In this document: positions 29,495 to 44,111 of the stretch, in pieces
Position numbering within the stretch: position 1 is the stretch's first letter
Layout of the letters: every line of letters starts with the position of its first letter
IMG/VR virus record: IMGVR_UViG_3300037461_000711
Span: 1-64,000 of that record
DNA length: 64,000 nucleotides
Strand: one strand, 5' to 3'
From: a virus
Lineage: Duplodnaviria > Caudoviricetes
Translations under genes and position numbers: made by a program
The notes under the pieces: generated by a model
Told to the model about the DNA's origin: nothing
The model's input: the letters and a program-made list of their open reading frames with translations, nothing else
Databases searched by the model: none

Positions 29495-29781
29495 GTCTTT
29501 CTCCTAATCACCAGTTGTTTTCTTTCAGGTTGGTTGACAAGTGTGAGTTCCCCACCTTGTTTCATCATGACATAGCGATAGCCGCATTTATTGCACATAA
29601 ACATTTCAATGCCGTGGAACTGTGCGTACCGAAACAGGGTGAAATGGGTGGGGTCGTTCGGGCAGGGCACGATGCAGCTTTCGGTCATCTGAACTCCTTC
29701 GCTAATGCACTGCCTGACCTTTCGAATTAATGCTTTTCGAATTTCAACTGGCACGTTTTCGAGAGAGGTTTTCATAACCAC
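29491..29781 (-). CDS. hypothetical protein ending RKQLVIRRKT
   Basis: CP..., CNKC; coupled. Confidence 0.6.
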   Translation of the reverse strand: MVMKTSLENVPVEIRKALIRKVRQCISEGVQMTESCIVPCPNDPTHFTLFRYAQFHGIEMFMCNKCGYRYVMMKQGGELTLVNQPERKQLVIRRKT

Positions 29782-31130
29782 CCTTCGTCTAAGTACAGAC
29801 AGATTCGTTCCCCAAAGTGTTTAATGAGGTAGTTGTGGGAACTGTCGAAAAAGTCAACTATCGAAACCCGGTCTTTATCGTCGGTTCTTCGCAGTCCCCG
29901 GCCAATGTTCTGCAAGGTTACGATTTCTGATTTACCCAAGTGGGCCAGCACGATCATGTTCAGGCTCGGTATGTTGACCCCTTCTTTCCAGACCGTGGTG
30001 CAGATAGCCCCGAATAATTTCTTTTCAATCAGCTTGGTTTTGATTTTAACCCGTTCGAGACTTGGGGTAGCACCATTGACAAAGGGTATATCCACCCCTT
30101 TCTTCATGAGTGCCGATTTAATCAGGTTGCCGTGGTCGATGCGGTTTACCATGATGAGCACGACCCGCTTGTGATGGATGTTGCTCTTAACGATAGTTGC
30201 GATTTTATCGGTTCTTTCATCATTCTTGACGATGCCGTGTTCCACCACTTCTTCATAGCTGCGGTAGAGTTGGCGAATTCTGAAGTCCTCACTCAGCTTG
30301 ATAATCTTGATCTTGGGCTTTGCAATAATGTTCAACTTGGCGGCTTCGTTGATGGTCAGTCGCGCTACGGTCGGCCCGATAAGCCCCTCTAATGCCATTT
30401 CAGCTTCTTTATTTACGGGCTTTGTGGCTGTAAAGGCCCAACGGTACGGGGCCAATAGAGTGCCCAACGCTCTGCCATAGTTGCCGTCGATGGAAGACAC
30501 ATGATGCCCTTCATCGACAATGACACAATCGAAGTAGGTCATGTAGTCATCCGGGTTGTATTTGATGAAACTCTGAACGGTGGCAACCACGATGGTTTTC
30601 TTTAACGGTTGAAGGTGCCCCTCAATTATCATCTGGTGGTTCAGGTTGAATTTGTGAAGCTCCTGAGAAGTCTGCATTACAATGTCTTTGGTATGGGCAA
30701 GAATGAGGGTGCAGAAGTCTTTTGGTAGGGTGGTAATCAGGCCCATTTGCAGAATCGTTTTGCCCGACCCGGTGGGGGAAACCACCACCCCCCGCTCTGC
30801 TTTCAATGCTTGGTCGATTAGCTTTAGTTGGTCTGGTCGAAATTCGATACCTTTCAAATCTGGGATTTTGAACTCGAACTTGGCTTTGTCAAACATGGTT
30901 GTGATCTTGGTGTTGGAGTTGGCTTTTCTCACTCGTGGAATGAACCCCGCCAAGAAATAATGATAGCCGTCTTTCTGCTTTTTGATTAGGGACTTCGAAT
31001 ACTCGTACCTACGCATGGCCCATTGGCCTTTGCGCCAGTACGATGCGGTGTAGCAGAGGGTGGAGGCCAGCTTCTTTGACCCCTCTTCATTCGTTCGGGC
31101 TTCGATTGGGTTTACGATTTCTATTTTCAT
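29772..31130 (-). CDS. SF2 (UvsW-like) helicase
   Basis: SPTGSGKT, IVDEGHH, FTAT, EGVNIPSL, QNIGRGLR. Confidence 0.92.
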   Translation of the reverse strand: MKIEIVNPIEARTNEEGSKKLASTLCYTASYWRKGQWAMRRYEYSKSLIKKQKDGYHYFLAGFIPRVRKANSNTKITTMFDKAKFEFKIPDLKGIEFRPDQLKLIDQALKAERGVVVSPTGSGKTILQMGLITTLPKDFCTLILAHTKDIVMQTSQELHKFNLNHQMIIEGHLQPLKKTIVVATVQSFIKYNPDDYMTYFDCVIVDEGHHVSSIDGNYGRALGTLLAPYRWAFTATKPVNKEAEMALEGLIGPTVARLTINEAAKLNIIAKPKIKIIKLSEDFRIRQLYRSYEEVVEHGIVKNDERTDKIATIVKSNIHHKRVVLIMVNRIDHGNLIKSALMKKGVDIPFVNGATPSLERVKIKTKLIEKKLFGAICTTVWKEGVNIPSLNMIVLAHLGKSEIVTLQNIGRGLRRTDDKDRVSIVDFFDSSHNYLIKHFGERICLYLDEGWL

Positions 31131-31474
31131 AGTAGCTTCTTCCGAATTACGAGTTGTTTCTTCTTTTTGCGAATCACCAATTGTTTCTTTGTCTTGATCT
31201 GAATGGAGGCTGCTTGGCCCCCTACGGTGCAGTAGCAAATCTCCTTTCTCTGCCGTGCTTGGCAGACCTTGAGGTAGACCCATTGGTCCCTATCGCCACA
31301 CCAGAAGATGTTAGTGGGTTCAAAGGCTTCGCAGCTTTCGTCTCCCTCATTGACGATGCTTTCTTTTACCGGGCAAACTCGGTTGATGATGATGGTCTGT
31401 TTGCCCCCGCCGATATTGACTTTCTCTTCGACACGTTCCGCACCGTGGTACTTCAGGCACAGTTGGCAAAACAT
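31127..31474 (-). CDS. Cys-rich hypothetical protein ending in a doubled KQLVIRK motif
   Basis: Multiple Cys; ATGA overlap with helicase start. Confidence 0.65.
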   Translation of the reverse strand: MFCQLCLKYHGAERVEEKVNIGGGKQTIIINRVCPVKESIVNEGDESCEAFEPTNIFWCGDRDQWVYLKVCQARQRKEICYCTVGGQAASIQIKTKKQLVIRKKKKQLVIRKKLL

Positions 31475-31830: not shown

Positions 31831-31859
31831 ATCTTAATAATGATTAATAGAAATGTCAA
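31831..31859 (-). promoter_or_regulatory. sigma70-type promoter of the replication operon
   Basis: TTGACA-17-TAAGAT; shares CCCCTTGACATTT with the 27641..27669 promoter. Confidence 0.7.
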
Positions 31860-32215
31860 GGGGCTAATTTTTGCAGGGTGGTGAGGGTTTTTCTGAGGGC
31901 TTCGAGAAACCTGATTTCTTCTTCTATCCATTCAACGGTTTTGGGCTGGTCAGAAAATATTTCTATCGTGTCGTTCTCAAGGTGGATTTTTCTGAGGTTG
32001 ATATCCGATACGGCATCGGCAATTCTGCGGTTTTCAGAAACCATTTTCTGAAAGCGGGTGGTGGGTTCTTTCGTTTCGGGTTCCAGGTTGATGGGGGCAA
32101 TGCTGTTTTGAATTCTGTCGATGTTGCTTGAGATGATTCGAACTTCGTGATCCTGTAATGGTCTGTCAATCGGTACTACCATGTTCAGGTTGATCTTGAT
32201 TTCGGGGTTCGTCAT
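31856..32215 (-). CDS. hypothetical protein
   Basis: GGAGG RBS, MTNPEIKIN. Confidence 0.6.
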   Translation of the reverse strand: MTNPEIKINLNMVVPIDRPLQDHEVRIISSNIDRIQNSIAPINLEPETKEPTTRFQKMVSENRRIADAVSDINLRKIHLENDTIEIFSDQPKTVEWIEEEIRFLEALRKTLTTLQKLAP

Positions 32216-32567
32216 TTTCAGCCTCCTTCAATAGGTTGATTGTGCTGGTTCTGATCTGCCAGACTTCGGCCCAACGATTATCACAAAAGCAGAAGCGTAT
32301 GCCGGTATCCACAAACAGTTCGGTCTTTCTCAGGTCTTCAATCGTGCTTCTCATTCTGCCGCATGAGCATACGACAAACTGGTTCTTTTGAAGACAAATT
32401 CTGTCATAGCCTGAAATCTCATAGTTGCTGTCGATTCTGGTATAGGGATGACCCTTACCCTGGATGCCGACCCCTACTATGGATGACGTGTCGCCTGTAT
32501 ATAGTACGTGAAGCTCTACGGGCTGCTGCTGGAGAACGATTTGGCCGATGGCTCTTTTTATGGACAT
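32166..32567 (-). CDS. hypothetical protein
   Basis: AGGGGG RBS before MSIKRAIG. Confidence 0.55.
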   Translation of the reverse strand: MSIKRAIGQIVLQQQPVELHVLYTGDTSSIVGVGIQGKGHPYTRIDSNYEISGYDRICLQKNQFVVCSCGRMRSTIEDLRKTELFVDTGIRFCFCDNRWAEVWQIRTSTINLLKEAENDEPRNQDQPEHGSTD

Positions 32568-32580
32568 GGATTTGCCCCCT

Positions 32581-32688
32581 AAAAAGTGAATTGTCGCGGG
32601 GCTTCGAAACCGGGGACCACCCCCGGTAAGGGAGGTACATCGTGGGCTAACGCACGATGGAAGCCCCGCGACAAACCTTGGATTTGTA
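32581..32688 (-). ncRNA. putative structured small RNA (three-way junction) with exposed anti-SD
   Basis: 15-bp closing stem, two 7-bp inner hairpins, junction UACCUCCCUU, 3' UUCACUUUUU, own promoter; 5' end estimated. Confidence 0.55.
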
Positions 32689-32694
32689 ATGGCA

Positions 32695-32724
32695 ATTATA
32701 CGGCACCAGAGCATCCAAAGTCAA
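32695..32724 (-). promoter_or_regulatory. sigma70-type promoter
   Basis: TTGACT-18-TATAAT. Confidence 0.65.
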
Positions 32725-32805
32725 CGATTCATAGCTACCACCAAATTGAGTAACCCATTAATCCCGACCACGAACTCCTTCTTATTCGTGATCGGTGTTG
32801 ATGGG

Positions 32806-32973
32806 TTAATCCGTTGCTTCGACGAAAAACTCGCATAGGTGCTCCTCAAACATATTGCATTCGAGCGAGCATTCAATGCAAGCTTCGTCCATGAGGGTTT
32901 TGGCTTCTGGGTCCGCATTGTCGATGTAGTTTGCACAGTTGATGCATTGTTCCGAGTAGCGGCTGAATGTCAT
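32806..32973 (-). CDS. small Cys-rich hypothetical protein
   Basis: ATGA overlap with upstream stop; CINC, CIEC. Confidence 0.4.
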   Translation of the reverse strand: MTFSRYSEQCINCANYIDNADPEAKTLMDEACIECSLECNMFEEHLCEFFVEATD

Positions 32974-33248
32974 GAGCATCTCCATTTCTTGACGGTGCCG
33001 ATGATTTGGTCTCCATCCATTAGAAGGGTGCTGCTGCCGATTGCCCTGGTATTGTGCATGAGAAGAAAGCAGGGCTTCCAACCCGTTGTTACCCCCACGT
33101 ATCCACGCTTTGTTTCACCGTATCTTGTTTTGACGATAATGCGCTGTCCACTACAGAAGTAGGGTATGAATTGCTTTGACAGGTCTGAATCGTCAAAATT
33201 GGGGATACGGCTTTTTTTCTCCCTCAACCAATCTTCAAAATTTCTCAT
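32970..33248 (-). CDS. phage hypothetical protein
   Basis: GGAGGTG RBS; RGYVGVTTGWKPCFLL. Confidence 0.65.
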   Translation of the reverse strand: MRNFEDWLREKKSRIPNFDDSDLSKQFIPYFCSGQRIIVKTRYGETKRGYVGVTTGWKPCFLLMHNTRAIGSSTLLMDGDQIIGTVKKWRCS

Positions 33249-33526
33249 GAGTCACCTCCAACGGCTTCTCTTACTGCAATTTCGCAGTATTCAGCGATGC
33301 CGTCTTCCCCTTTCGCTCGCAGGGCTTCACATGCGAGCATGAGGCGCTCCAGAAGTTTGGGGCTTGCGGCGATCAGTTGAGCGTTTCTGTCCAACTCACA
33401 GAAATCTTTGAAGTTGGGGTTTCCATACTTGTCTTGCCCGTAAGTGAGATAGAACGCCCCACTTGGAGTGACAATGCTTCTGCCAGCTTGCAACTTCCAT
33501 GGCCCAGGCGTGTGTTTGGTTCTCAT
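33245..33526 (-). CDS. phage HTPGPW-type hypothetical protein
   Basis: MRTKHTPGPW...NAQLIAASPKLL; conserved leader. Confidence 0.7.
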   Translation of the reverse strand: MRTKHTPGPWKLQAGRSIVTPSGAFYLTYGQDKYGNPNFKDFCELDRNAQLIAASPKLLERLMLACEALRAKGEDGIAEYCEIAVREAVGGDS

Positions 33527-33609
33527 AGCTACCTCCCTTGGTTAGTGGTTATCCAAGGCTAATGCCTTGTGTCTATGCTCAAAGTTTCCCTTGAGCATAG
33601 GGCAAAACA

Positions 33610-34023
33610 TTACCAATTGGTTATGCGTTTTCCGGTTGCCGTACAACGCATGGGGGATGCACAAACCTTACATATTTCATTTAATCTGCAAACTAATTCG
33701 TCAAATGGTTTAAGATAGGTTTTATCGGAAAGCTGCACAACACGATTTTGTTTGTCAAGAAAAAAAGCGGAACCCATTGCCATAACAAATTCATTCAGGT
33801 TTGGATGTTTCGATAAAATTTTTCTAGCTTCTGATTCGATCAATTTGTAGGAAATAATGTCGATCTGTTGACAATGAAAGTCGATAGTTTCCAGGGCTTT
33901 TATTTTGTTTTCTACATTGGGTTCTAAAATTGAGAGAATAAGCTCCCTATTGTCTTCAAAAAAATCTCTGTCGCTATCATAATATCCAGAAAAATCTGAG
34001 TCTTTTCTCTTTTTAATTTTCAT
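33610..34023 (-). CDS. hypothetical protein
   Basis: Conserved leader; AT-rich. Confidence 0.7.
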   Translation of the reverse strand: MKIKKRKDSDFSGYYDSDRDFFEDNRELILSILEPNVENKIKALETIDFHCQQIDIISYKLIESEARKILSKHPNLNEFVMAMGSAFFLDKQNRVVQLSDKTYLKPFDELVCRLNEICKVCASPMRCTATGKRITNW

Positions 34024-34133
34024 AGCTACCTCCCTTGTTTGTTGTTAGCTGCATTAGGGGCGTTTTATCGTGCCCTTTATCGTAAGGCATGATTACCCAT
34101 GCCTTACTGTAAAAAACACGCATACAAGCCCTC

Positions 34134-34844
34134 TCAGTCGTCCTTTTTGCCTAATTTAATCAACATTTCGGGTTCAAATTTTGAAACATGGGCAATAATG
34201 TTTTCTGGTTTGTCTTGCGACTTGAACGACCAATCACATCCATGAATTACATTGCCTTTACAATTCAGATATAATTCTCCCTCGTTGAATGAAATCACGT
34301 CTTCTTCCCAAATATTATAAAGAAACGGTGTTTTTTCGACAACTTTTTTACCCCAATTTTCAGCCCGTCCTTCAGAGATACAATGCTCATAATCGGGTTT
34401 CCATTTATCGTATTTGTAGTGTACTGTCAGATTATTTTCTTCGGCAAAATCTAAAAGCTTATGGGCGTCCGGGTTGCCACAGTGAAATTGATCGTTCGAA
34501 ATATCCACGCTTGAAATTTCGTTATCATCACACCAAGCATGTAGACGTTCCCAAACATTTAAGAATTTTCTTGTGATCCGTTCAGCATTGGTTGCAATGT
34601 AATAATTGCCAACTCCTACGCTGTGATTTCTGCAAGCGCCAATGAACAGACCAATAATTTCCGGTGCAAGAGTGGGTTCCCCACCAGTGAATGTGACAGT
34701 ATCCACGTACTTGAAGTGCCCAAGAAGTGTAGATATATTCTCGTAGGTCTGTCTCATCCGTTGTCGTTGACCTCTAAGACAATGGTAGCACTCCAGGTTG
34801 CACCATCTTGTGACCTCAATGATTACGCTCCCTTGTAATTTCAT
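34134..34844 (-). CDS. radical SAM protein
   Basis: IEVTRWCNLECYHC, FTGGEP, IATN. Confidence 0.88.
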   Translation of the reverse strand: MKLQGSVIIEVTRWCNLECYHCLRGQRQRMRQTYENISTLLGHFKYVDTVTFTGGEPTLAPEIIGLFIGACRNHSVGVGNYYIATNAERITRKFLNVWERLHAWCDDNEISSVDISNDQFHCGNPDAHKLLDFAEENNLTVHYKYDKWKPDYEHCISEGRAENWGKKVVEKTPFLYNIWEEDVISFNEGELYLNCKGNVIHGCDWSFKSQDKPENIIAHVSKFEPEMLIKLGKKDD

Positions 34845-34956
34845 AGCTACCTCCCTTGTTTGATTGTGATTGTTAGCCCAGATTCAATTAGAATCCGTGA
34901 CCGGGCAAAAATATTTTCTCGTTGTTTTTGCCCGGTGGCTGATCCTAATTCTCGAC

Positions 34957-35892
34957 TTATTCTTCCACTTCAACTTTTCTCACAGACATGGCCCAATGGA
35001 TGTCGAACTGTCCAACATCAGTGAGCAAAAACAGGTGATCGAATTTGTACGGCAGAATTTCCTTTGCCAGTTTCAGGCATTTTTTGGGGGTATCATCCTG
35101 ACCCCGGTGAAATCCATTTTCGAACCGGGTGCAGTATGACTCTTCGCTTTCCAGACACTTGAACCCGGCAGCTTCGACGTGTTCTTGCATCCAGTATGGT
35201 AGTGCTTTGTTAAGCGAATTCAGGTAATGCTCGATCACGTCATCTGCTCCATCCTTTTTCACGCATTCGTGACAGAGTATTTCGCAGTCCGAAACCCATA
35301 CCCATGAAGTTTGCCAACCGTAGCTGTCGGCGGAAGTTCTGACGGCTTTGTAACAATTACAGCAACCAGTCCATTCGTCTGACCATTCAATCGAAATATT
35401 GCCTTGAAAGAATTTGTCGATCCAATCGCAAAGCTTCTTCATTTTGGGTGGGTTCCAGTTGGCGGCGATTGTGGGTATGTCGTCATAGCCCATTTCCGAA
35501 ACACCATTGTAGAAGTCTGCATATTCGCCAATCCGGTCGATGTATTCGAGAATGTCTGAAATCGAAACTTTCTCCCACCTGCGGCGTATTCTTTTCTCGT
35601 ACTCCATACGAGCAGTATTGGATGCCGCTTTCAAAAATTCTATCTGCATGGGGGTGAGATCCTCTACTGGCACGAACTCCCGAATGCCGGGCAATTCGAT
35701 TTGAACTTCTTTCCAGAGCAGTTCGGCGGTTGTTTTTTCGGCTTGAGCAAATCGGAAAAGCTCAAGAGGGTTGTTATGAACATAATATTGACGTCCATCT
35801 CTGCCGATAATAACCACCTTTCCCGGCAAATTTGCATACCGCAAAGCGATAGCAAACTCTCCATCGGTTTTCACCTTGAAGTCTTCGTACAT
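34957..35892 (-). CDS. hypothetical protein
   Basis: Conserved leader; CCNC and CHEC. Confidence 0.75.
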   Translation of the reverse strand: MYEDFKVKTDGEFAIALRYANLPGKVVIIGRDGRQYYVHNNPLELFRFAQAEKTTAELLWKEVQIELPGIREFVPVEDLTPMQIEFLKAASNTARMEYEKRIRRRWEKVSISDILEYIDRIGEYADFYNGVSEMGYDDIPTIAANWNPPKMKKLCDWIDKFFQGNISIEWSDEWTGCCNCYKAVRTSADSYGWQTSWVWVSDCEILCHECVKKDGADDVIEHYLNSLNKALPYWMQEHVEAAGFKCLESEESYCTRFENGFHRGQDDTPKKCLKLAKEILPYKFDHLFLLTDVGQFDIHWAMSVRKVEVEE

Positions 35893-35985
35893 AGCTACCT
35901 CCCTTAGTTAGATGGTTGAATGTTAGCCCAAGGGTTAATCCCTTGCGTTTGCCCATAGCTCCTTGTCTATGGGCAAGACAAAAGA

Positions 35986-36186
35986 TTAAAGACTTGTCAC
36001 GAATTCGTATCCTATGCCGTCGATTTCAACGACATACCCCGCGAAGTCTTCCCTCTGAACCCAGAGTTCTTTCTTCTCCGATTCGTCGATGAGAATGATT
36101 TCTCCATCTTCGTTCGGCCCTTGGTAGACTTCGTACTCGGTGTCTTCCAATGGTTCCCTGGCCTGACTGCCAATCTGCCGAATCAT
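35986..36186 (-). CDS. small acidic hypothetical protein
   Basis: GAGGAG RBS. Confidence 0.6.
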   Translation of the reverse strand: MIRQIGSQAREPLEDTEYEVYQGPNEDGEIILIDESEKKELWVQREDFAGYVVEIDGIGYEFVTSL

Positions 36187-36197
36187 TTTTGATCTCC

Positions 36198-36392
36198 TCA
36201 GTCGTTAAAGATTTGCATGAATGCTCCGCATGCCTTGCACTTGTAAGTCCATTTAATAATCTCGCCAGACTTGTCCCGAAGGGGCTGATCTAACGTGAAG
36301 AATGTCTGACATACGGCACACTTCATCCCGGTGTGTTCGAGTGTTGACATTTCGGTGACGTATCCGTTGTCGGTCTTTGTCCAGATGGTCAT
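36198..36392 (-). CDS. small zinc-ribbon protein
   Basis: Conserved leader; CAVC..CKAC. Confidence 0.65.
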   Translation of the reverse strand: MTIWTKTDNGYVTEMSTLEHTGMKCAVCQTFFTLDQPLRDKSGEIIKWTYKCKACGAFMQIFND

Positions 36393-36490
36393 AGCTACCT
36401 CCCTTGGTTGGTGTTATCCCCCTCTTGTTTTGGGGGTAAAGTCTCAAGTCTGTCCACGAGATAAAAATTTCTCGTGAACAGGTTCAGGCT

Positions 36491-37087
36491 TTACTCCTTT
36501 TCATCGGGCAGAACAAGTTCGCCGGTTTCCACAGAGAATACGGGGTACGGGGCTTTGCCATCCTCAAACCAATCGTGGCTGAAGCAATAGCCCTTGGCGT
36601 ATCCAGCGTTTTCGGCGTGTGATTTGTACGCTTCTCCATAAGCATTGGGTGCTATCTCAGAAACAGTTTTCAACTGCTCCTTGACTTCACCCACCGGCTT
36701 GAACGGATTCATGAGGTAAACAGCACCCGGCGCACACGGAGAGCAGAACTGTGCATAGGTGAAATATAGCGACTTTGTAATAAATATGTCGCCGTCATCC
36801 CCGCATTCTGCCGTGTACTCACCATCGTCCACGTACCACGAAACAGGTTCGAGCATGTCAAAGTCTCCATCGTCGAATTCGTGCCCACAATCGGGGCAAG
36901 TCTCCGGCACTTCTTGGCCGATTTCCCGCTCGCATTCGGGGCAGTAGTAGACGTAGTTGGGTTCCGAACTGTCGGCCCACGCTTGGAGAACCTCATTCTG
37001 GCTGATTACCCCATACCGAATGTTTTTCTCGTGGTCGATGTTGGAAATACCTCTGCCATAGTCGATACCAGCATACGGTTCCTTCAT
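36491..37087 (-). CDS. Cys-rich hypothetical protein
   Basis: Conserved leader; CPEC, CPDC, CSPC. Confidence 0.75.
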   Translation of the reverse strand: MKEPYAGIDYGRGISNIDHEKNIRYGVISQNEVLQAWADSSEPNYVYYCPECEREIGQEVPETCPDCGHEFDDGDFDMLEPVSWYVDDGEYTAECGDDGDIFITKSLYFTYAQFCSPCAPGAVYLMNPFKPVGEVKEQLKTVSEIAPNAYGEAYKSHAENAGYAKGYCFSHDWFEDGKAPYPVFSVETGELVLPDEKE

Positions 37088-37194
37088 AGCTACCTCCCTT
37101 GTTGGTTGTTGTTGTTAGCCTAAGAGCGTATCCTTAGCTCTTAATCCAAGGCTGTCATGCCTCTATATACGGGATGACAGCCTTGTGTTAAAAA

Positions 37195-37452
37195 CTAAGC
37201 GTGAGCGGCGCGGGCAACGATCCAGAGGTCGAGAACCTCTTCCAGAGATTTGCCGTGGCGCATGGTGCCGGGGTGATCCGTAGTGTAGCGGGTCAAGTGA
37301 CTGAGAATAGAAGTCCTCAGAAAACCTCCCGGCTCGACTTTCGACGTATCGAATCCACCAAAGTCGGTGATGAAATCCAGGTAATCGAAGATCGCATCGA
37401 GACTGTAGGGATTCGACGTGAAAAGCCTGGGCATTCCATACACGTTTAACAT
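37195..37452 (-). CDS. hypothetical protein
   Basis: Conserved leader. Confidence 0.65.
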   Translation of the reverse strand: MLNVYGMPRLFTSNPYSLDAIFDYLDFITDFGGFDTSKVEPGGFLRTSILSHLTRYTTDHPGTMRHGKSLEEVLDLWIVARAAHA

Positions 37453-37609
37453 AGCTACCTCCCTTGGTTAGTTGTTAGCACTCCATTCAGCCCATGACTT
37501 CCCATCATGGGCTGTAGCAATGCTAACTAAAAGGAAAACATAAATACAACCATGAAAAAGATACAGACAAAAATCAGAATCCCACCGATGATGTCCTTGG
37601 CTTCTTGTG

Positions 37610-37828
37610 TCATGCCGTCCTCACAAAAGAGATTGATTTGTGATTGCCAACGCGGTCGATCCAGTGAACATCGACCGCATCCCCAATTTCGGCCATGTCA
37701 AAGACCGGATCATACGTGACGTGCTTATAGCCCAAGCACTTGACCAGTCCTTTGATGTAAGTGTAGACCTGACCGATTTCAATTTCCCCGAAGATGGCAC
37801 TCCAGAATTTCATGGGTCTGTTTTTCAT
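37610..37828 (-). CDS. hypothetical protein
   Basis: Conserved leader. Confidence 0.65.
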   Translation of the reverse strand: MKNRPMKFWSAIFGEIEIGQVYTYIKGLVKCLGYKHVTYDPVFDMAEIGDAVDVHWIDRVGNHKSISFVRTA

Positions 37829-37899
37829 AGCTACCTCCCTTTGTTAGTGGTTAGCGTTCAAGTCCGTGCTCAAAGTTTCTCTTGAGCACAGGTTCAACA

Positions 37900-38160
37900 C
37901 TAACTTTCCCGGCGTTTGACAAGATAATACTTGCAATCGCACATGATAGCCTGATGTCCACAGATTGGGCATCGCTCGTTATCACAGCCGGGATGATGAG
38001 GCTTGCCGAGTTTTGCTCTACAGTCATGGCAGCGTTCCTGATCGCAGAGGTTAGAAGTGTCCCTTTTGTAAAGCTTTTTGCCTTTGATTTTCTTGGCATG
38101 AGTCCAGATACAACCATCTGAAGTCAACATTTCCTGCTTGCAAAAATCGCAAATTGCCAT
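37900..38160 (-). CDS. Cys/His-rich metal-binding protein
   Basis: Conserved leader; CHDC..GKPHHPGCDNERCPICG. Confidence 0.7.
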   Translation of the reverse strand: MAICDFCKQEMLTSDGCIWTHAKKIKGKKLYKRDTSNLCDQERCHDCRAKLGKPHHPGCDNERCPICGHQAIMCDCKYYLVKRRES

Positions 38161-38325
38161 AGCTACCTCCCTTGGTTGGTGTTTACTGAATCGTTCCATC
38201 TGCTCTGTGCAGGAGGGTCGCGCCATTACCACTTCTCCCTGCACAGGCACATCTAACGATTCATAATGATTACCTCTCTTTCCCAAGAAATTTCTCGTGG
38301 CAGAGCCTTCCAAGAAACTTCTCGA

Positions 38326-39234
38326 TTAGTTCCGCAGATGGTCGAAATGCCTTGCAAGCACAAACGCCATCTGCTCTTCCCGCTCTTTTCTGCCCGATGA
38401 GTCCTTGACTTCGTGGGTGATCCACTGAGTCAAGATGCTATTCATCGTCCAGGCAGAAACAGGTTTGCCGGTGTTGAACATGCTCTCCAGGGTGATGCCG
38501 GTTCCGGTTTCGGGCAAGGCCAAAATCTTTTCGGTCTGCTTTTCCGAAATCGGCAGCGCCTCAAAGATTTCCTCGGCCTGGGCCTTTTCGATCATGAGCT
38601 TGGTCCATGAGCGCCACAGTTCGTGCTCTTCTTCCATGGTCTTGATGCAAGTGTTCAACTGCTTGACCACGGCGTCCATACTCAGACCTTGCCGATGCTT
38701 CCGTTTGAAATGCTGGAGAACCTTGGTCGATACCATGCCGTTTGAACAGCGGAAGACCACTGCCCCGCCCGTCCCGGTCAATTGGGTCTGCGAGTCATAC
38801 GAATTTTTGAATCCGATGAAAGGCTCGATGACGTCCTTGCCGATCTTCAACTTCTTGGCTTCCTTCATCTCGGGGAAGAACGCCCGAACGAATGCCTTGG
38901 CTCCCTGGTCGTACAGGTTCACCTTGAATTCAGGCACTCCCCAATGCGACCAGTTCGAAGTGACTTCCCGCATGAGCATGTGCGTTACCACCTCATGCGG
39001 GACGAGCTTGTAGTGATCGGTCACGAAGTTGGGGAAGACCATGCCCTCATCTCCGTTGTCGATCACGACCGCGTTCCACTTCTCGGCCAAGTGCTCGGCA
39101 CCGTTCCCGATCCAGACCGCATCGAGATAGGCATTGGGCCATTTGACGTCCTTAAATTGGGCGTGCATTTTGGCTTTGATGTCCTCCACGTGAGCGGCAT
39201 CTTCCAGAAGCTTGCTGAGTTCTTCCTGTGTCAT
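38326..39234 (-). CDS. DUF932-family protein
   Basis: VTDHYKLVPH, NSYD, FRCSNGMV, KHR pattern; conserved leader. Confidence 0.75.
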   Translation of the reverse strand: MTQEELSKLLEDAAHVEDIKAKMHAQFKDVKWPNAYLDAVWIGNGAEHLAEKWNAVVIDNGDEGMVFPNFVTDHYKLVPHEVVTHMLMREVTSNWSHWGVPEFKVNLYDQGAKAFVRAFFPEMKEAKKLKIGKDVIEPFIGFKNSYDSQTQLTGTGGAVVFRCSNGMVSTKVLQHFKRKHRQGLSMDAVVKQLNTCIKTMEEEHELWRSWTKLMIEKAQAEEIFEALPISEKQTEKILALPETGTGITLESMFNTGKPVSAWTMNSILTQWITHEVKDSSGRKEREEQMAFVLARHFDHLRN

Positions 39235-39344
39235 AGCTACCTCCCTTGGTTTGGTGTTATGAGGTGGGCAAATCCCCCTCGGTGAAAGCACGAGAATCCA
39301 GAGAAATATTTTCTCGTAAAAATTTTCTCGTGCTTCCAACGAAA

Positions 39345-40046
39345 CTAATTTGCCGATATGCGACTTCTTCCAGAGGCAAGGTTCAAATTGTTTCCATCAG
39401 CATAACCACGTGCAAGCGCAGAATTGTCCCCAACAGAGCGGGGTCGCATCTTCCCAAGCTTGGGGTAAACTTCATTTATTTTTGCTTGCACCAAAGCTTT
39501 AGAAATTACGACCAAATCCCGGCACGTGTTGTCTAAGGCATCGTTCACTTTTTTGTACAAATCCTCAAGACGCTCGTTCACGCGACAAACCATTCCGTAG
39601 GCATAGGCGCGTTGCTTCCTGATGCCTTTGGGGTAGGCTTCCTCGGCCCATGAGCCTATCTCTAATCGCAAACGCGAAAAGAAATAGTCGATCATCTCCA
39701 AATCATCTTTAGAACCGAAGAAACGCAGACTGCTCCGATGATTATGAACGATGATTTTTGAATTGAAGCACCGGGCAATCCCTGAACCGAGGTGAATCTC
39801 CCAATCGGCTTCCTTGTCGAACAAGTCTTCAAAGGTGTCCTTGACCTGATCGGTAGCCTTTTGGGGTTTCGGTTCCTTTGACCGCATCTCCAGCGAACTG
39901 ATTTGCCATTTGAGCATGAGCTTTTCCGCTGCAAACTGTGCAGCATTGCGCTCACCTTCCGTAGCAGCCGGGTCCGCAGCCAATTGCATACACTTCAAAA
40001 TCTTCTCCATGGCTTGCTCTCTTAATACGTGATGAGATGAGTCCAT
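39345..40046 (-). CDS. DUF2786-family protein
   Basis: EKILKCMQLA...EGERNAAQFAAEKLMLKW; leader variant. Confidence 0.75.
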   Translation of the reverse strand: MDSSHHVLREQAMEKILKCMQLAADPAATEGERNAAQFAAEKLMLKWQISSLEMRSKEPKPQKATDQVKDTFEDLFDKEADWEIHLGSGIARCFNSKIIVHNHRSSLRFFGSKDDLEMIDYFFSRLRLEIGSWAEEAYPKGIRKQRAYAYGMVCRVNERLEDLYKKVNDALDNTCRDLVVISKALVQAKINEVYPKLGKMRPRSVGDNSALARGYADGNNLNLASGRSRISAN

Positions 40047-40099
40047 ACTAGCTACCTCCCTTGTTGGTTGTGGGTTTCTCTCAGTAGACCATGGCGGGG

Positions 40100-40221
40100 T
40101 GAACGGCATTCAGTGAGTGAACGACATTCAGTGAATGAGGTAAATTCACTAACTGAATCTGATTCAGTGAATGAACGATATTCACAGAATGAACGATATT
40201 CAGTGAACGAAATTTCATTCA
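40100..40221. repeat. 18-bp-period array of TGAA(T/C)-N3-ATTCA
   Basis: Units at 40100, 40118, 40136 (degenerate), 40154, 40172, 40190, and a degenerate one at 40209. Confidence 0.75.
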
Positions 40222-40358
40222 CTAAATACAATTCATTTTTGCCATAGTCTACTATCACCTTGTTAGCCATTTTATAGGTTTTAACCTATACGTTGGCGCA
40301 CTATCAAGCGAGTCGTGGTCGTGCCGTGATAATGCGCCAGATATAGCTTAAAACTGTT

Positions 40359-40835: not shown

Positions 40836-41017
40836 GTTTTTACCTCTCTTTTAGTGTTAGTTTAAGGTTATTTAGCAAAAATTAACAGAATGCCGAAAAC
40901 AATAGACAATAGCCAAAAAACCAAGTCTACTTTAATCAATAATACCTCTCTTTCGTTATAGGGTTTTTGGGAATTCTTTAGGTAATAGCATGTAATAAAG
41001 ACTAGGCCAACATAAAG

Positions 41018-41317
41018 TTAAATACAGTAAAATGTATTATTACAATCGTGGCCAAAAACTTGTTTAACTCTTGCATTTATAACTTCGTCAACATCAACAT
41101 CAATCTCATTATTCAAGTTCGAAAGTTCACATAAAGTATTGTCTAAAATGCCTTGATTCAATTCAAGTATAGTTGAAATTTCATAAAGTAAATCGTTCGG
41201 TAGATTTTCGGCATTATTAGTTGAATCATTATCAATTAAAATTTGTTGAAGAGTAGACAAGGCAAAAAACATTAAATCACCGGCAAGCTTAACTTTATCG
41301 CTTATAGGTTTTCGCAT
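41018..41317 (-). CDS. low-GC hypothetical protein
   Basis: AGGTGA RBS inside 36-bp direct repeat. Confidence 0.6.
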   Translation of the reverse strand: MRKPISDKVKLAGDLMFFALSTLQQILIDNDSTNNAENLPNDLLYEISTILELNQGILDNTLCELSNLNNEIDVDVDEVINARVKQVFGHDCNNTFYCI

Positions 41318-41345
41318 TTTATCACCTATTTTTAGTTGGGAATTT

Positions 41346-41600
41346 TTATTTGTTTTCGTAATACTTCAAAAATTTTTGAATTTCATTTTTTGAATTATTG
41401 GGCATTAAATTTATATCTGAATTCAAAATCATATCAGCGAAAGTCAACAACATTTCATTCAAATTTGCATTTTTGTTTTTGCCTTCGAGAATGTCAATTA
41501 TTAGGTTTTTGCAAAGCTTAGAATAGTCTGAAATATGGGTAAACATATTATCATATTTTTTCAAAACGTCGTTTAATTCATCTGCTATTGTTTTCGGCAT
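41346..41600 (-). CDS. low-GC hypothetical protein
   Basis: Same 36-bp leader as the previous gene. Confidence 0.6.
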   Translation of the reverse strand: MPKTIADELNDVLKKYDNMFTHISDYSKLCKNLIIDILEGKNKNANLNEMLLTFADMILNSDINLMPNNSKNEIQKFLKYYENK

Positions 41601-41883
41601 TTAATCACCTATTTTTAGTTGGGAATTTTTATTGCCTAGTCTTTATTACATGCTACCACCTAACCATATTTAGTGTCTTTTTAGTATCAAGCGATTAAGG
41701 TTATTTTGAAAAGTAAAATTTACGTTTCAACTCTCGATCATAGCAAATACATTCTATTCTGTGACACAAAAAACAAGCTTTTTTAGTTGGGAATTTTTTA
41801 AATTTAAAATAAGGTTTTTTGCTTGGTTTTTTAGGTAAAAATTTAAGAAAAGTCGAATTCGGCATATTGTAAGCGATAGGCAT

Positions 41884-44111
41884 AAAATCACCTATAAGCT
41901 TGATACTAAATAGACACTAAAAAAAACATAGCCCACTATCAAACCGAAATAAAAGCTTGATAGTGGGCTATTTGGCTAACACCATAAGGTAGGTAGTAGC
42001 TATGATGCCTAGCGAAAATTCCCAAAGTCAATTAAACGGGTTTTTAAACCTAGCCTTATGATGCGGCATATTGCATTGCCTATTGTCACGATTTTACATG
42101 CTCAATTAGGCAATTACCAAACGTACAGAATAGCAGTGCAGTGCTAGGTAACCGTTTGACTTTGGCCTAGGCTATGTAGAATCACTTTTCACCCTGTACC
42201 ACTGAAGCACAAAAAAGCTTTACCGACCTATCGAACTGTTGCCCGTAGGCAACTAGGCAAGTAAATCAAGCTTTAGGTGATCGGCTTTTCGTCGGGAATT
42301 TTTTTCGGCTTTACCATCGGCATTTAGCGGCCAGCTCTCAGATAATCATTGTGCTGGTATTGCTTCGGCTAATTTCTTCGATCAATTAGGCAAGTCAATT
42401 AGAAAAAAACCGCGCCGCATGCCTACTCTATGCCTACTCAAAAGCCCTATGTCAAGCGATAGTTGCGTGTTACGGGTTTTCAAACCGTTTGCCGTTATTG
42501 GCCTATCGACTCAGCCGAAAACATACAATTTCAGCCTTACCTATAGACTATCAAAAAAAAACAGAATGTCAAGAGAAAAAAACATTTTTTTAAAATATTT
42601 ATTTTTATAAAAAAATAAATTTCGGCATGTTTTTTGACTATTTCAAATTTAATGCCAAAAAATCAAAAAAAGCGAAAAACGACGATCTATTTTTTTGAAT
42701 AGTAGGGTATGGCTAAAAAACAAAGTGTCATAAAACGCTTCTAATTGCGTTTAAAACGATTTTTGATTATGGCATGATACTTGCTAACTACATGAATTTA
42801 CAAGCAAATAAATAAATCAAATTAATTTAATGAATTTCATTCAGTGGCATACTCTATGCAATTGGCAGATAACATGCCGAATTAAATAAATCGAATTCAT
42901 ACTATGAATCCTATTCAGTATATGAATCCCCTTCATTAATTAATTCTGATTAAATAAATAATCATGCCAAATAAATTAATTCTCATTCAAAGATTAAACC
43001 AGATTCAAATTCTAAATTAAATTCGTTTTCTAATTTTCATTTATTTTATTTTTCAAATTCAAAAATTAATTCCACCTCATTCTCTAAACGTAATTCAGAA
43101 ATTAATAATAATTCATTTTCTGATTCCACTTCATTTCTTAAATCAGATTCAGATTATTAATAAAAATTATAACTTGATTCCACTTCACAAAATTAATAAG
43201 ATTCACAATCTAAATCTGATTCAGAATATAAATGTGAATTATAATCTGAAAGCAATTTATAAAATAAATCACAGTCAATTTCTAAATTGATCTAAGACAC
43301 TATCTATGGTTCACCTACTAAATACCATTCACTAACTAAATAAACCCCATAAAACAAACGAGATTCAGTCAGTATAGCCAGAGTCAGATACTATATGTGG
43401 GTCATTAATTAAATAGGGTTCTATTTATTGAATGAGAGAAGAGAGAATGAATGAGGTTCATTTAATTAATAGACTTCTATGGGATGACGATACGTTTTAT
43501 TTATATATAAATAATATTTTATGAATGATATTCATTCGTTAGATACCATAGTATATAGTGAATAGCATTCATTAAATAAATAAGACCAATAATATGAATT
43601 ATGTAAACTAATTAAATGAATGATATTCAGTAACCATCAGCCAATTATTGAATATCATTCAGTAAATAAATGAATGTCATTCAATAAATAGCCCCGCCTC
43701 AGTCCATCTCGCAAGGGGGGTCCAGGCATCGCGCAATAGGGCCAACACCACAATTTTTTTTAGCTATAGAAATTTCAAGGTACTCATTATTCTCCTCAGC
43801 CCCCCATCTCACCACAATTTTTTTCTGTCTAAAAATTCTATAGAACCCTTTTGTTTTAATTAACCCCAGGAACCCCCATAAATAGAATCTACCCCTATAC
43901 GTGCCCGAAGCTTAATTTAATTTAATGAGAACCGAATAAAAGGAACCGGACTATAGAAATTAAATCAGGCAGACCCCCCCTCTTTGATCTGGCGTTCTAT
44001 ATAATAAGGTAGGGGTTAGGGTTTCGGAGTGTAAAAATTAATCAGGTTGGTCGAAAAATAATTTTACGATTTTTCTTGATTTTTGATTATTCGTGATTTA
44101 TTCTCTACGAC
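41884..44111. other. long AT-rich non-coding region at the divergence of transcription (candidate terminus/packaging/control region)
   Basis: About 2.2 kb without a credible ORF; A-tracts, palindrome array, GC-rich patch near 43690..43750. Confidence 0.6.
42545..42572 (-). promoter_or_regulatory. possible leftward sigma70 promoter
   Basis: TTGACA-16-TAGTCT. Confidence 0.35.

Follow-up and report, generated by a model that had tools for sequence, protein, structure and literature searches.

Temporal shut-off of early genes in phages is known mainly through proteins, such as RegA and RegB of T4, and to our knowledge the small RNAs of phages are few and mostly directed against host genes or single immunity genes. 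The principle of masking a Shine-Dalgarno (SD) sequence by antisense pairing is already established. The hairpins of Staphylococcus aureus RNAIII, the Rsa RNAs (UCCC) and RsaE/RoxS all use an unpaired C-rich motif to pair with the G-rich SD of several mRNAs, and RNAIII makes two contacts on one target. Two short, separate contacts, one of them at the ribosome binding site (RBS), are also made in the bipartite kissing complex between OxyS and fhlA. The c4 RNA pairs with its target at two sites and is processed by RNase P.

In a passage of PMC8198154 that cites Citron and Schuster (1990), c4 of phages P1 and P7 is presented as an antisense repressor of the icd-ant operon. Together with the CI RNA of P4, it provides the mechanism closest to the one considered here: a structured antisense RNA of a phage, located at the head of an operon, with two exposed segments, one of which is directed against an RBS. 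RegB of T4 cuts early mRNAs within GGAG, for which a conserved site of 11 nt is required (PMC1702504; reviewed in PMC3014915). RegB and RegA follow the same logic as our candidate, in that a sequence common to the SDs of early genes lets one phage factor inactivate all of them together. A literature search for phage small RNAs with anti-SD action on early genes yielded nothing comparable.

Here, we describe an RNA element which we regard, with about an even chance of being right, as a bipartite antisense regulator of a phage's own early regulon. It is encoded by record IMGVR_UViG_3300037461_000711, a complete virus of 89,318 bp with direct terminal repeats that derives from a wetland metagenome assembly; the window that was analyzed comprises the first 64 kb of this record. 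Terminase, protease and major head protein genes on the plus strand from approximately 44 kb identify a tailed phage, and the genes for DNA polymerase, a DnaB-like helicase and an SF2 helicase are all located on the minus strand. The minus-strand genes extend from a divergent region of low G+C content (41 to 44 kb) down to approximately 3 kb, and the folded RNA lies at the boundary between a block of small early genes (40.1 to 33.2 kb) and the replication module. The divergent region (41000-44000; G+C content of 32 to 35%), which separates the minus- and plus-strand gene blocks, probably serves as the early promoter region and may also be an origin. Several promoter-like sites occur at 41.4 to 41.8 kb; at 41971-41928, T8 follows an 18-bp hairpin.

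DNA similarity to cultured phages was not found for 31.5 to 34.5 kb, the helicase is at most 27% identical to its counterparts there, and the 133-aa protein encoded next to the RNA element had no match among them. The helicase ORF (29772-31283, minus strand) comprises 503 aa, but the protein is probably 452 aa long, since the deposited protein and all homologues point to this length, with a start near 31130.

A sigma-70-like promoter sequence is present on the minus strand exactly where the preliminary description of the locus had placed it, with TTGACT at 32724-32719, an 18-nt spacer, TATAAT at 32700-32695 and a predicted start near 32688. Matching 11 of 12 positions, it is the best promoter-like site within 30 to 42 kb. 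The 15-bp closing stem and the two 7-bp hairpins that had been read downstream of it, on the same strand, likewise proved accurate in every coordinate. As delimited by folding and covariance models, the core of the RNA is a three-way junction (32591..32674, minus strand). P1 consists of 15 perfect pairs (32674-32660 with 32605-32591) and P2 of CAUCGUG/CACGAUG (32659-32653 with 32644-32638), which is closed by the loop CGUUAGCC (32645..32652). The junction strand UACCUCCCUU (32628..32637) leads to P3, ACCGGGG/CCCCGGU (32627-32621 with 32615-32609), and J3/1 is UUC (32608-32606). The predicted free energy of the window RNA is -53.9 kcal/mol (z = -4.97), and none of 200 shuffled sequences folded as well. 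The junction is unpaired in both the minimum free energy (MFE) and the centroid structure, at an opening cost of 0.01 kcal/mol. Just 5' of the -35 box, GGTAGCTATG, which represents the 3' half of the early-gene cassette described below without its SD part, occurs at 32732-32741 and 32806-32815 (minus strand). All six members of the RNA family introduced below have a TAGCT(A/G)T box in this region, 5' of the -35 box in four and 3' of the -10 box in L166 and L265.

Directly 3' of P1, the tail UUCACUUUUU (32581..32590, minus strand), a possible weak terminator in the window phage only, is followed by the SD AGGGGG (32580-32575), which precedes the ATG at 32567 of a 133-aa ORF (32166..32567, minus strand). 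The replication module opens with this ORF, which always lies 3' of the RNA element. No Pfam or PHROG family was assigned to its product, and the AlphaFold model of the protein has a pLDDT of 48.7. It overlaps the next ORF (31856-32215, minus strand) by 50 nt, with a similar overlap in relatives, and in L166 (966-1658) both are joined in a single ORF of 230 aa, which points to gene splitting or fusion, or to a programmed frameshift.

The preliminary description had also claimed that the junction is the exact complement of AAGGGAGGUA in 11 early ribosome-binding cassettes at 33.5 to 40.1 kb, and this was borne out. The early module (33530..40062, minus strand) contains 11 cassettes with AAGGGAGGUA, whose first bases are at 40062, 39247, 38173, 37841, 37465, 37100, 36405, 35905, 34857, 34036 and 33539. 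AAGGGAGGTA has exactly 11 minus-strand copies at 33530-40062 and one plus-strand copy, at 32628-32637; when one mismatch was allowed, 17 matches were obtained compared to 3.0 expected, a number reached by none of 100 shuffles. All 11 copies lie inside the cassette AAGGGAGGTAGCT(AG)ATG at a gene start. Upstream of the cassette, GGCUAAC is found at a distance of 7 to 16 nt at 37120, 35928 and 34878, and GCUAAC at 37855, 37479 and 34049; a further GGCUAAC is located at 40268, approximately 200 nt 5' of the first cassette (all minus strand). Four of the five minus-strand copies of GGCTAAC in the genome fall in the 7.5-kb early block.

These leaders are modular. In the window phage, L089, L090 and L108, they carry one or two strong hairpins followed by G(G)CUAAC, a 7- to 16-nt spacer rich in A and C, (C)AAGGGAGGUA, 1 to 8 nt and GCUAUG. 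The hairpins are without a U-tract and could be processing or stabilizing sites. In the leaders of the window (33245-40300, minus strand), L089 (1-8300) and L090 (1-4560), the loop of the long hairpin often contains (A)CGAGAAAUU, which corresponds to a plus-strand TTTCTCGT box, and a second hairpin lies between this one and G(G)CUAAC. One leader was checked for reading frames (33551-33526), and it has stops in all three just 5' of the ATG. The cassette-bearing gene at 34134-34844 (minus strand) encodes a radical SAM protein (Pfam PF04055), which is kept in L090 and also occurs in this block of the distant phages L091 and L093.

In the window, the duplex between junction and cassette amounts to -16.9 kcal/mol in all 11 cases. 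Among the minus-strand candidate starts that were scored (3 to 41 kb), the top 11 targets of the junction are precisely the cassette genes; the next candidate reaches -15.0 kcal/mol and most range from -2 to -12 kcal/mol. The four phages with several leaders show a pairing of 7 to 10 bp (-12.7 to -18.6 kcal/mol), and the junction of L265 pairs with its one leader over 6 bp (-13.1 kcal/mol). The match is partly generic, because any anti-SD-like stretch complements any strong SD. The junctions of the window phage and L089 bind the cassette more strongly than a generic 16S rRNA tail does (-13.2 kcal/mol), and the junction departs from the 16S anti-SD exactly where the cassette does: the extra G faces a C and the final A faces a U. 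At the position of this C, opposite the extra G of GGGAGG, the 16S tail has a U.

A second complementarity had been missed in the preliminary description of this interval. The P2 loop contains GUUAGCC, which is antisense to the GGCUAAC(G) of the early leaders, and no other 7-mer is as frequent as GGCUAAC in the 45 nt 5' of 27 cassettes. A perfect complement to the loop of at least 6 nt is present in 13 of the 27 leaders and one of at least 7 nt in 9, while random or shuffled loops find a mean of 0.1 to 0.6 leaders (P of approximately 0.001 or less). This pairing spans 6 to 8 bp, and a good loop site occurs in only about half of the leaders. The loop of L265, GUAGCCA, forms 7 bp with its own leader (UGGCUAU), which is better than a type-A loop would do; 149 of 2,000 shuffles do as well, so that the case gives no more than a hint of covariation between loop and leader. 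GGCUAAC is also identical to segments of 16S rRNA, which we treat as chance. Two further readings were rejected: the element is not an inverted duplicate of a leader, as the order of the blocks is wrong, nor does the inverted cassette precede a plus-strand ORF, as GTG GGC TAA stops at once.

The element was found in the window phage and five metagenomic relatives (L089, L090, L108, L166 and L265), which were reached through contigs with helicase homologues (58 to 66% identical) and then through homologues of the 133-aa gene. On the contigs of the relatives, the same element lies 5' of a homologue of this gene; all six members precede a gene family encoding 114 to 134 aa, a location in the 5' untranslated region (UTR), and the gene on the other side, 5' of the element, is non-homologous across members. 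L089 is identical to one IMG/VR contig over the 3.8 kb compared, and three further contigs are identical to L108 over the region. Scans of IMG/VR with the P1 15-mer, a cassette 16-mer and a junction 17-mer gave only chance single matches or none, separate motif scans of IMG/VR recovered the L089 phage only, and the IMG/VR scan with the helicase protein had no match. A protein-profile scan of metagenomes likewise had no match. A DNA pattern for metagenomes, which allowed 0 to 2 nt before P3 and hence was blind to members of the L089 type, produced 54 chance matches with no stems. Scanning of genome contigs led to 97 matches, and among the 80 loci listed none passed the covariance model. No copy of the RNA was present in L091 to L094, whose helicase is approximately 45% identical, or in L167, within the DNA covered.

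A search of Rfam and covariation in relatives had been named in the preliminary description as a check on the fold. Rfam contained no match to the window at the gathering score, and at E values of up to 5 to 10 (window, L089, L108 and L166) no family was matched, C4 included; covariation was found in the six members. A covariance model built from L090 and L108 only matched the window, L089 and L166 with E values of approximately 1e-6 (42 to 44 bits on the sense strand and approximately 19 on the antisense strand), and a second model, built without L265, matched L265 at an E value of approximately 1e-9. Over the six members, scores on the sense strand were 42 to 114 bits (R1) and 55 to 101 bits (R2) compared to 19 to 27 bits on the antisense strand, the sense strand outscoring the other 2 to 4 times. 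In the six-member alignment, whose counts lean in favor of the structure because the alignment was fitted to it and its sequences are related to one another, 98.3% of stem cells are paired and 22 of 30 pairs have changed on both sides. None of 500 shuffles equaled this pairing, and slid registers paired just 34 to 50%. P3 occurs in three different sequences and P2 in five, and G-U pairs are restricted to the sense strand, which makes the fold convincing. On these grounds, the RNA is, by comparison of sequences, a convincing conserved structured family and a new one with covariation support, albeit small, comprising six related sequences, of which one (L265) has a single leader.

The only unpaired stretches conserved in all six members are the CCUCCC of the junction and the UAGCC of the P2 loop, the two segments that match the leaders. 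The six junctions are UACCUCCCUU, UACCUCCCU, CCUCCCU, ACCUCCC, AACCUCCCUU and ACCUCCCUU, and the P2 loop has the form (C/A)GUUAGCC in four members; the other two have G(A/C)GUAGCCA. Junction length (7 to 18 nt), J3/1 and the P3 loop are variable. Both segments are free in the ensembles of five members at an opening cost below 0.8 kcal/mol (0.2 to 0.7 kcal/mol for the P2 loop). The element therefore has what characterizes a base-pairing small RNA, accessible and conserved seeds complementary to the RBS of its candidate targets. Between L090 and L108, the junction slips by one base, from CCUCCCU to ACCUCCC, and still leaves 7 bp with the cassette, which fits a pairing seed rather than a binding pocket or codons. 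Promoter-like sites with 8 to 11 of 12 matches were scored in five members, with the -10 end 13 to 20 nt before P1, and TTATGAT was read by eye, unscored, at the corresponding place in L265; the predicted start is 6 to 13 nt 5' of P1 in the five members examined. Two near-identical strains from other metagenome runs show no difference in 32586-32685, and the 18 differences in one strain contig of 339 nt are all located in the flanks of the element. This distribution suggests that the element is under purifying selection.

The core of the junction and the core of the cassette are both invariant in the relatives that have leaders. In the four members with enough 5' sequence, AGGGAGG cassettes occur only upstream of the RNA element; the single leader of L265 has the variant GGGAGGG, and L166 has too little upstream sequence to tell. 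Within the close clade, the element goes together with the cassette; distant relatives are without both, a pattern that shared ancestry alone could explain. Moreover, conservation of the cassette extends past the paired window in L090 and L108, and pairing alone is therefore insufficient to account for its uniformity. L091 to L094, phages of approximately 88 to 92 kb without the RNA and without the AGGGAGGUA cassette, each have their own highly uniform SD context, for example GGAGGAU or AAAGGAGGU, which is shared by many genes.

The preliminary description had proposed a discrete small RNA of approximately 105 nt that ends at UUCACUUUUU. This part did not hold for the family, as five relatives have no U-run beside P1. 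A U-run (CACUUUU and similar) is located 19 to 39 nt 3' of P1 in L089, L090, L108, L166 and L265, within approximately 25 nt 5' of the SD; it is not preceded by a strong hairpin in the relatives, and in L089, L090 and L108 it lies inside a small A/U hairpin. Since it is not adjacent to P1, the element forms, family-wide, the 5'-terminal part of the leader on the replication-module mRNA, and the transcript of the relatives should run into the downstream gene. In the lineage of the window phage, the intervening stretch is deleted, so that the homologous U-run abuts P1; the strain variant keeps it as UUCACCUUUUU. A conserved G+C-rich stem with an immediate U-tract, as in an intrinsic terminator, is not a property of the family, the U-run adjoining P1 in this lineage only. 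Even here, with A-U pairs closing P1 and an interruption (UUCAC) in the tail, termination is possible but not strong, and a terminator scan of the window did not list the UUCACUUUUU site. A free RNA of approximately 105 to 110 nt in the window phage, either terminated or released by a cut in the long P1 helix, has roughly one chance in three. The public runs listed as containing the phage included none of RNA.

Other readings of the same data were weighed. The location of the element would suit a purely cis-acting part of the 5' UTR of the replication operon, with an anti-SD strand that folds onto the SD of the 133-aa gene or a stable three-way junction that protects the long mRNA from decay beginning at its 5' end, and with the leader match as a by-product of the likeness between SDs. 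The element begins 6 to 13 nt from the predicted start in five members and is followed by the SD of the gene, without a terminator in the relatives; a stable stem at the 5' terminus is a known stabilizer of mRNA; and the junction can pair with the cis SD over 4 to 6 bp (-6.3 to -9.0 kcal/mol). However, this pairing has approximately half the strength of that with the early cassette, and against a cis SD of the sequence GAGGG it shrinks to 4 bp, as CCUCCC contains no CCCUC. In the strain variant, the cis SD has changed from AGGGGG to GAGAGGGU beside an identical element, without compensation. The SD is 10 to 60 nt away from the element and, in three relatives, just 3' of a small local hairpin of its own. 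The MFE structure leaves the junction free in the five UTRs folded, no expression platform of a riboswitch or cis-acting leader was found, and the conserved loop with its GGCUAAC match would go unexplained. We consider a purely cis role rather unlikely, and the earlier suggestion of a cis attenuator for the downstream gene is weakened in particular, its pairing being short, unconserved and uncompensated. Less likely still is a site whose structure is recognized by a protein, by RNA polymerase or by a small ligand, that is, a translational operator, a put-like processive antitermination RNA of the 30-kb operon or a riboswitch, to which the leader match would be incidental. A promoter-proximal element heading a long co-directional gene array would be well placed for this, and aptamers and operators are commonly built as a three-way junction in which the junction and one loop are conserved. 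Against it, no Rfam family was matched even at E values of up to 10; the variable junction length (7 to 18 nt), the slip between L090 and L108 and the unconserved J3/1 and P3 loop are unlike a binding pocket; and two independent matches to two blocks of the leader are unlikely to have arisen by chance.

The outline of P2 followed by ACCUCC resembles helix 45 and the anti-SD tail of 16S rRNA, and an RNA that mimics the 16S 3' end could titrate whatever recognizes it or compete generally for host and phage SDs. This appears very unlikely, given that CCUCCC with UA on its 5' side departs from the 16S tail exactly as the phage cassette does, that the P2 loop of 8 to 10 nt is unlike the loop of helix 45, that the junction is internal with no free 3' end, and that the match between loop and GGCUAAC would again be unexplained. 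Finally, the frame of the 133-aa protein is open through the element in the window (182-aa ORF, 32166-32714) and in L090 (4653-5219, 188 aa according to the gene caller), which could indicate an N-terminal extension. Yet the gene call for the window itself is 133 aa, a start codon is absent from the extension frame of L089, the distance from loop to junction differs by 7 nt among members, the slip that separates L090 from L108 alters two codons while the nucleotides CCUCCC are kept, and the stems change by compensatory pairs. The extended ORF of 182 or 188 aa is most likely an artifact of gene calling, and we give a coding role hardly any weight.

If the element is indeed an antisense regulator of the early genes, it could work as follows. 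Once the promoter fires, the RNA, at the 5' end of the replication-module transcript, would pair with early mRNAs. The P2 loop would contact GGCUAAC first, upstream, and the junction would then cover the SD. The order of the two seeds is opposite to that of a continuous duplex, and binding of both at once would need the 7- to 16-nt spacer of the leader to be looped back along P2, which appears feasible. Pairing would block binding of the 30S subunit and possibly expose early mRNAs to decay, and translation of the whole early set would be lowered together as the replication genes come on. The RNA would act as the 5' part of a long mRNA and, in the window phage, perhaps also as a short RNA of approximately 105 to 110 nt whose 3' end is formed by termination at the U-run or by cleavage at P1. 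Should the promoter be an ordinary sigma-70 promoter of the host, synthesis of the RNA would begin with infection itself, and there would be no delayed switch.

Compared to the described systems, the element resembles C4 in exposing two segments, one against an RBS, and this resemblance is one of mechanism only. The fold differs and does not match the C4 covariance model; the targets lie upstream, in 11 separate early leaders, whereas those of C4 are downstream in its own operon; and the setting in the window looks like a lytic temporal program, whereas C4 serves immunity. The Firmicutes small RNAs with a C-rich seed are host encoded, carry the seed in hairpin loops and have diverse targets, in contrast to the phage RNA, in which the seed lies in a strand of a three-way junction and the targets represent one repeated cassette within the phage itself. 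OxyS and fhlA are different RNAs of a host system with a single target. The effectors in T4, RegB and RegA, are proteins, and the candidate effector here is an RNA. What is new is the RNA family and the targeting, by a phage, of its own whole early regulon through a repeated modular leader. A further step, that the element is an RNA counterpart of RegA and RegB, an antisense timer with two seeds that sits in the 5' end of an mRNA and acts on the phage's own early regulon as a whole, is plausible but somewhat on the doubtful side.

Because the pair of loop and GGCUAAC lies outside the SD, clean tests with compensatory mutations are possible, and the system is compact, with an RNA of approximately 100 nt and a leader of approximately 40 nt, and easy to test. 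It might also serve as a tool for multiplex translational control. If the proposed role is true, one folded RNA and one repeated leader would control a whole gene class post-transcriptionally, and transcribing the next class of genes would itself shut down translation of the previous one.
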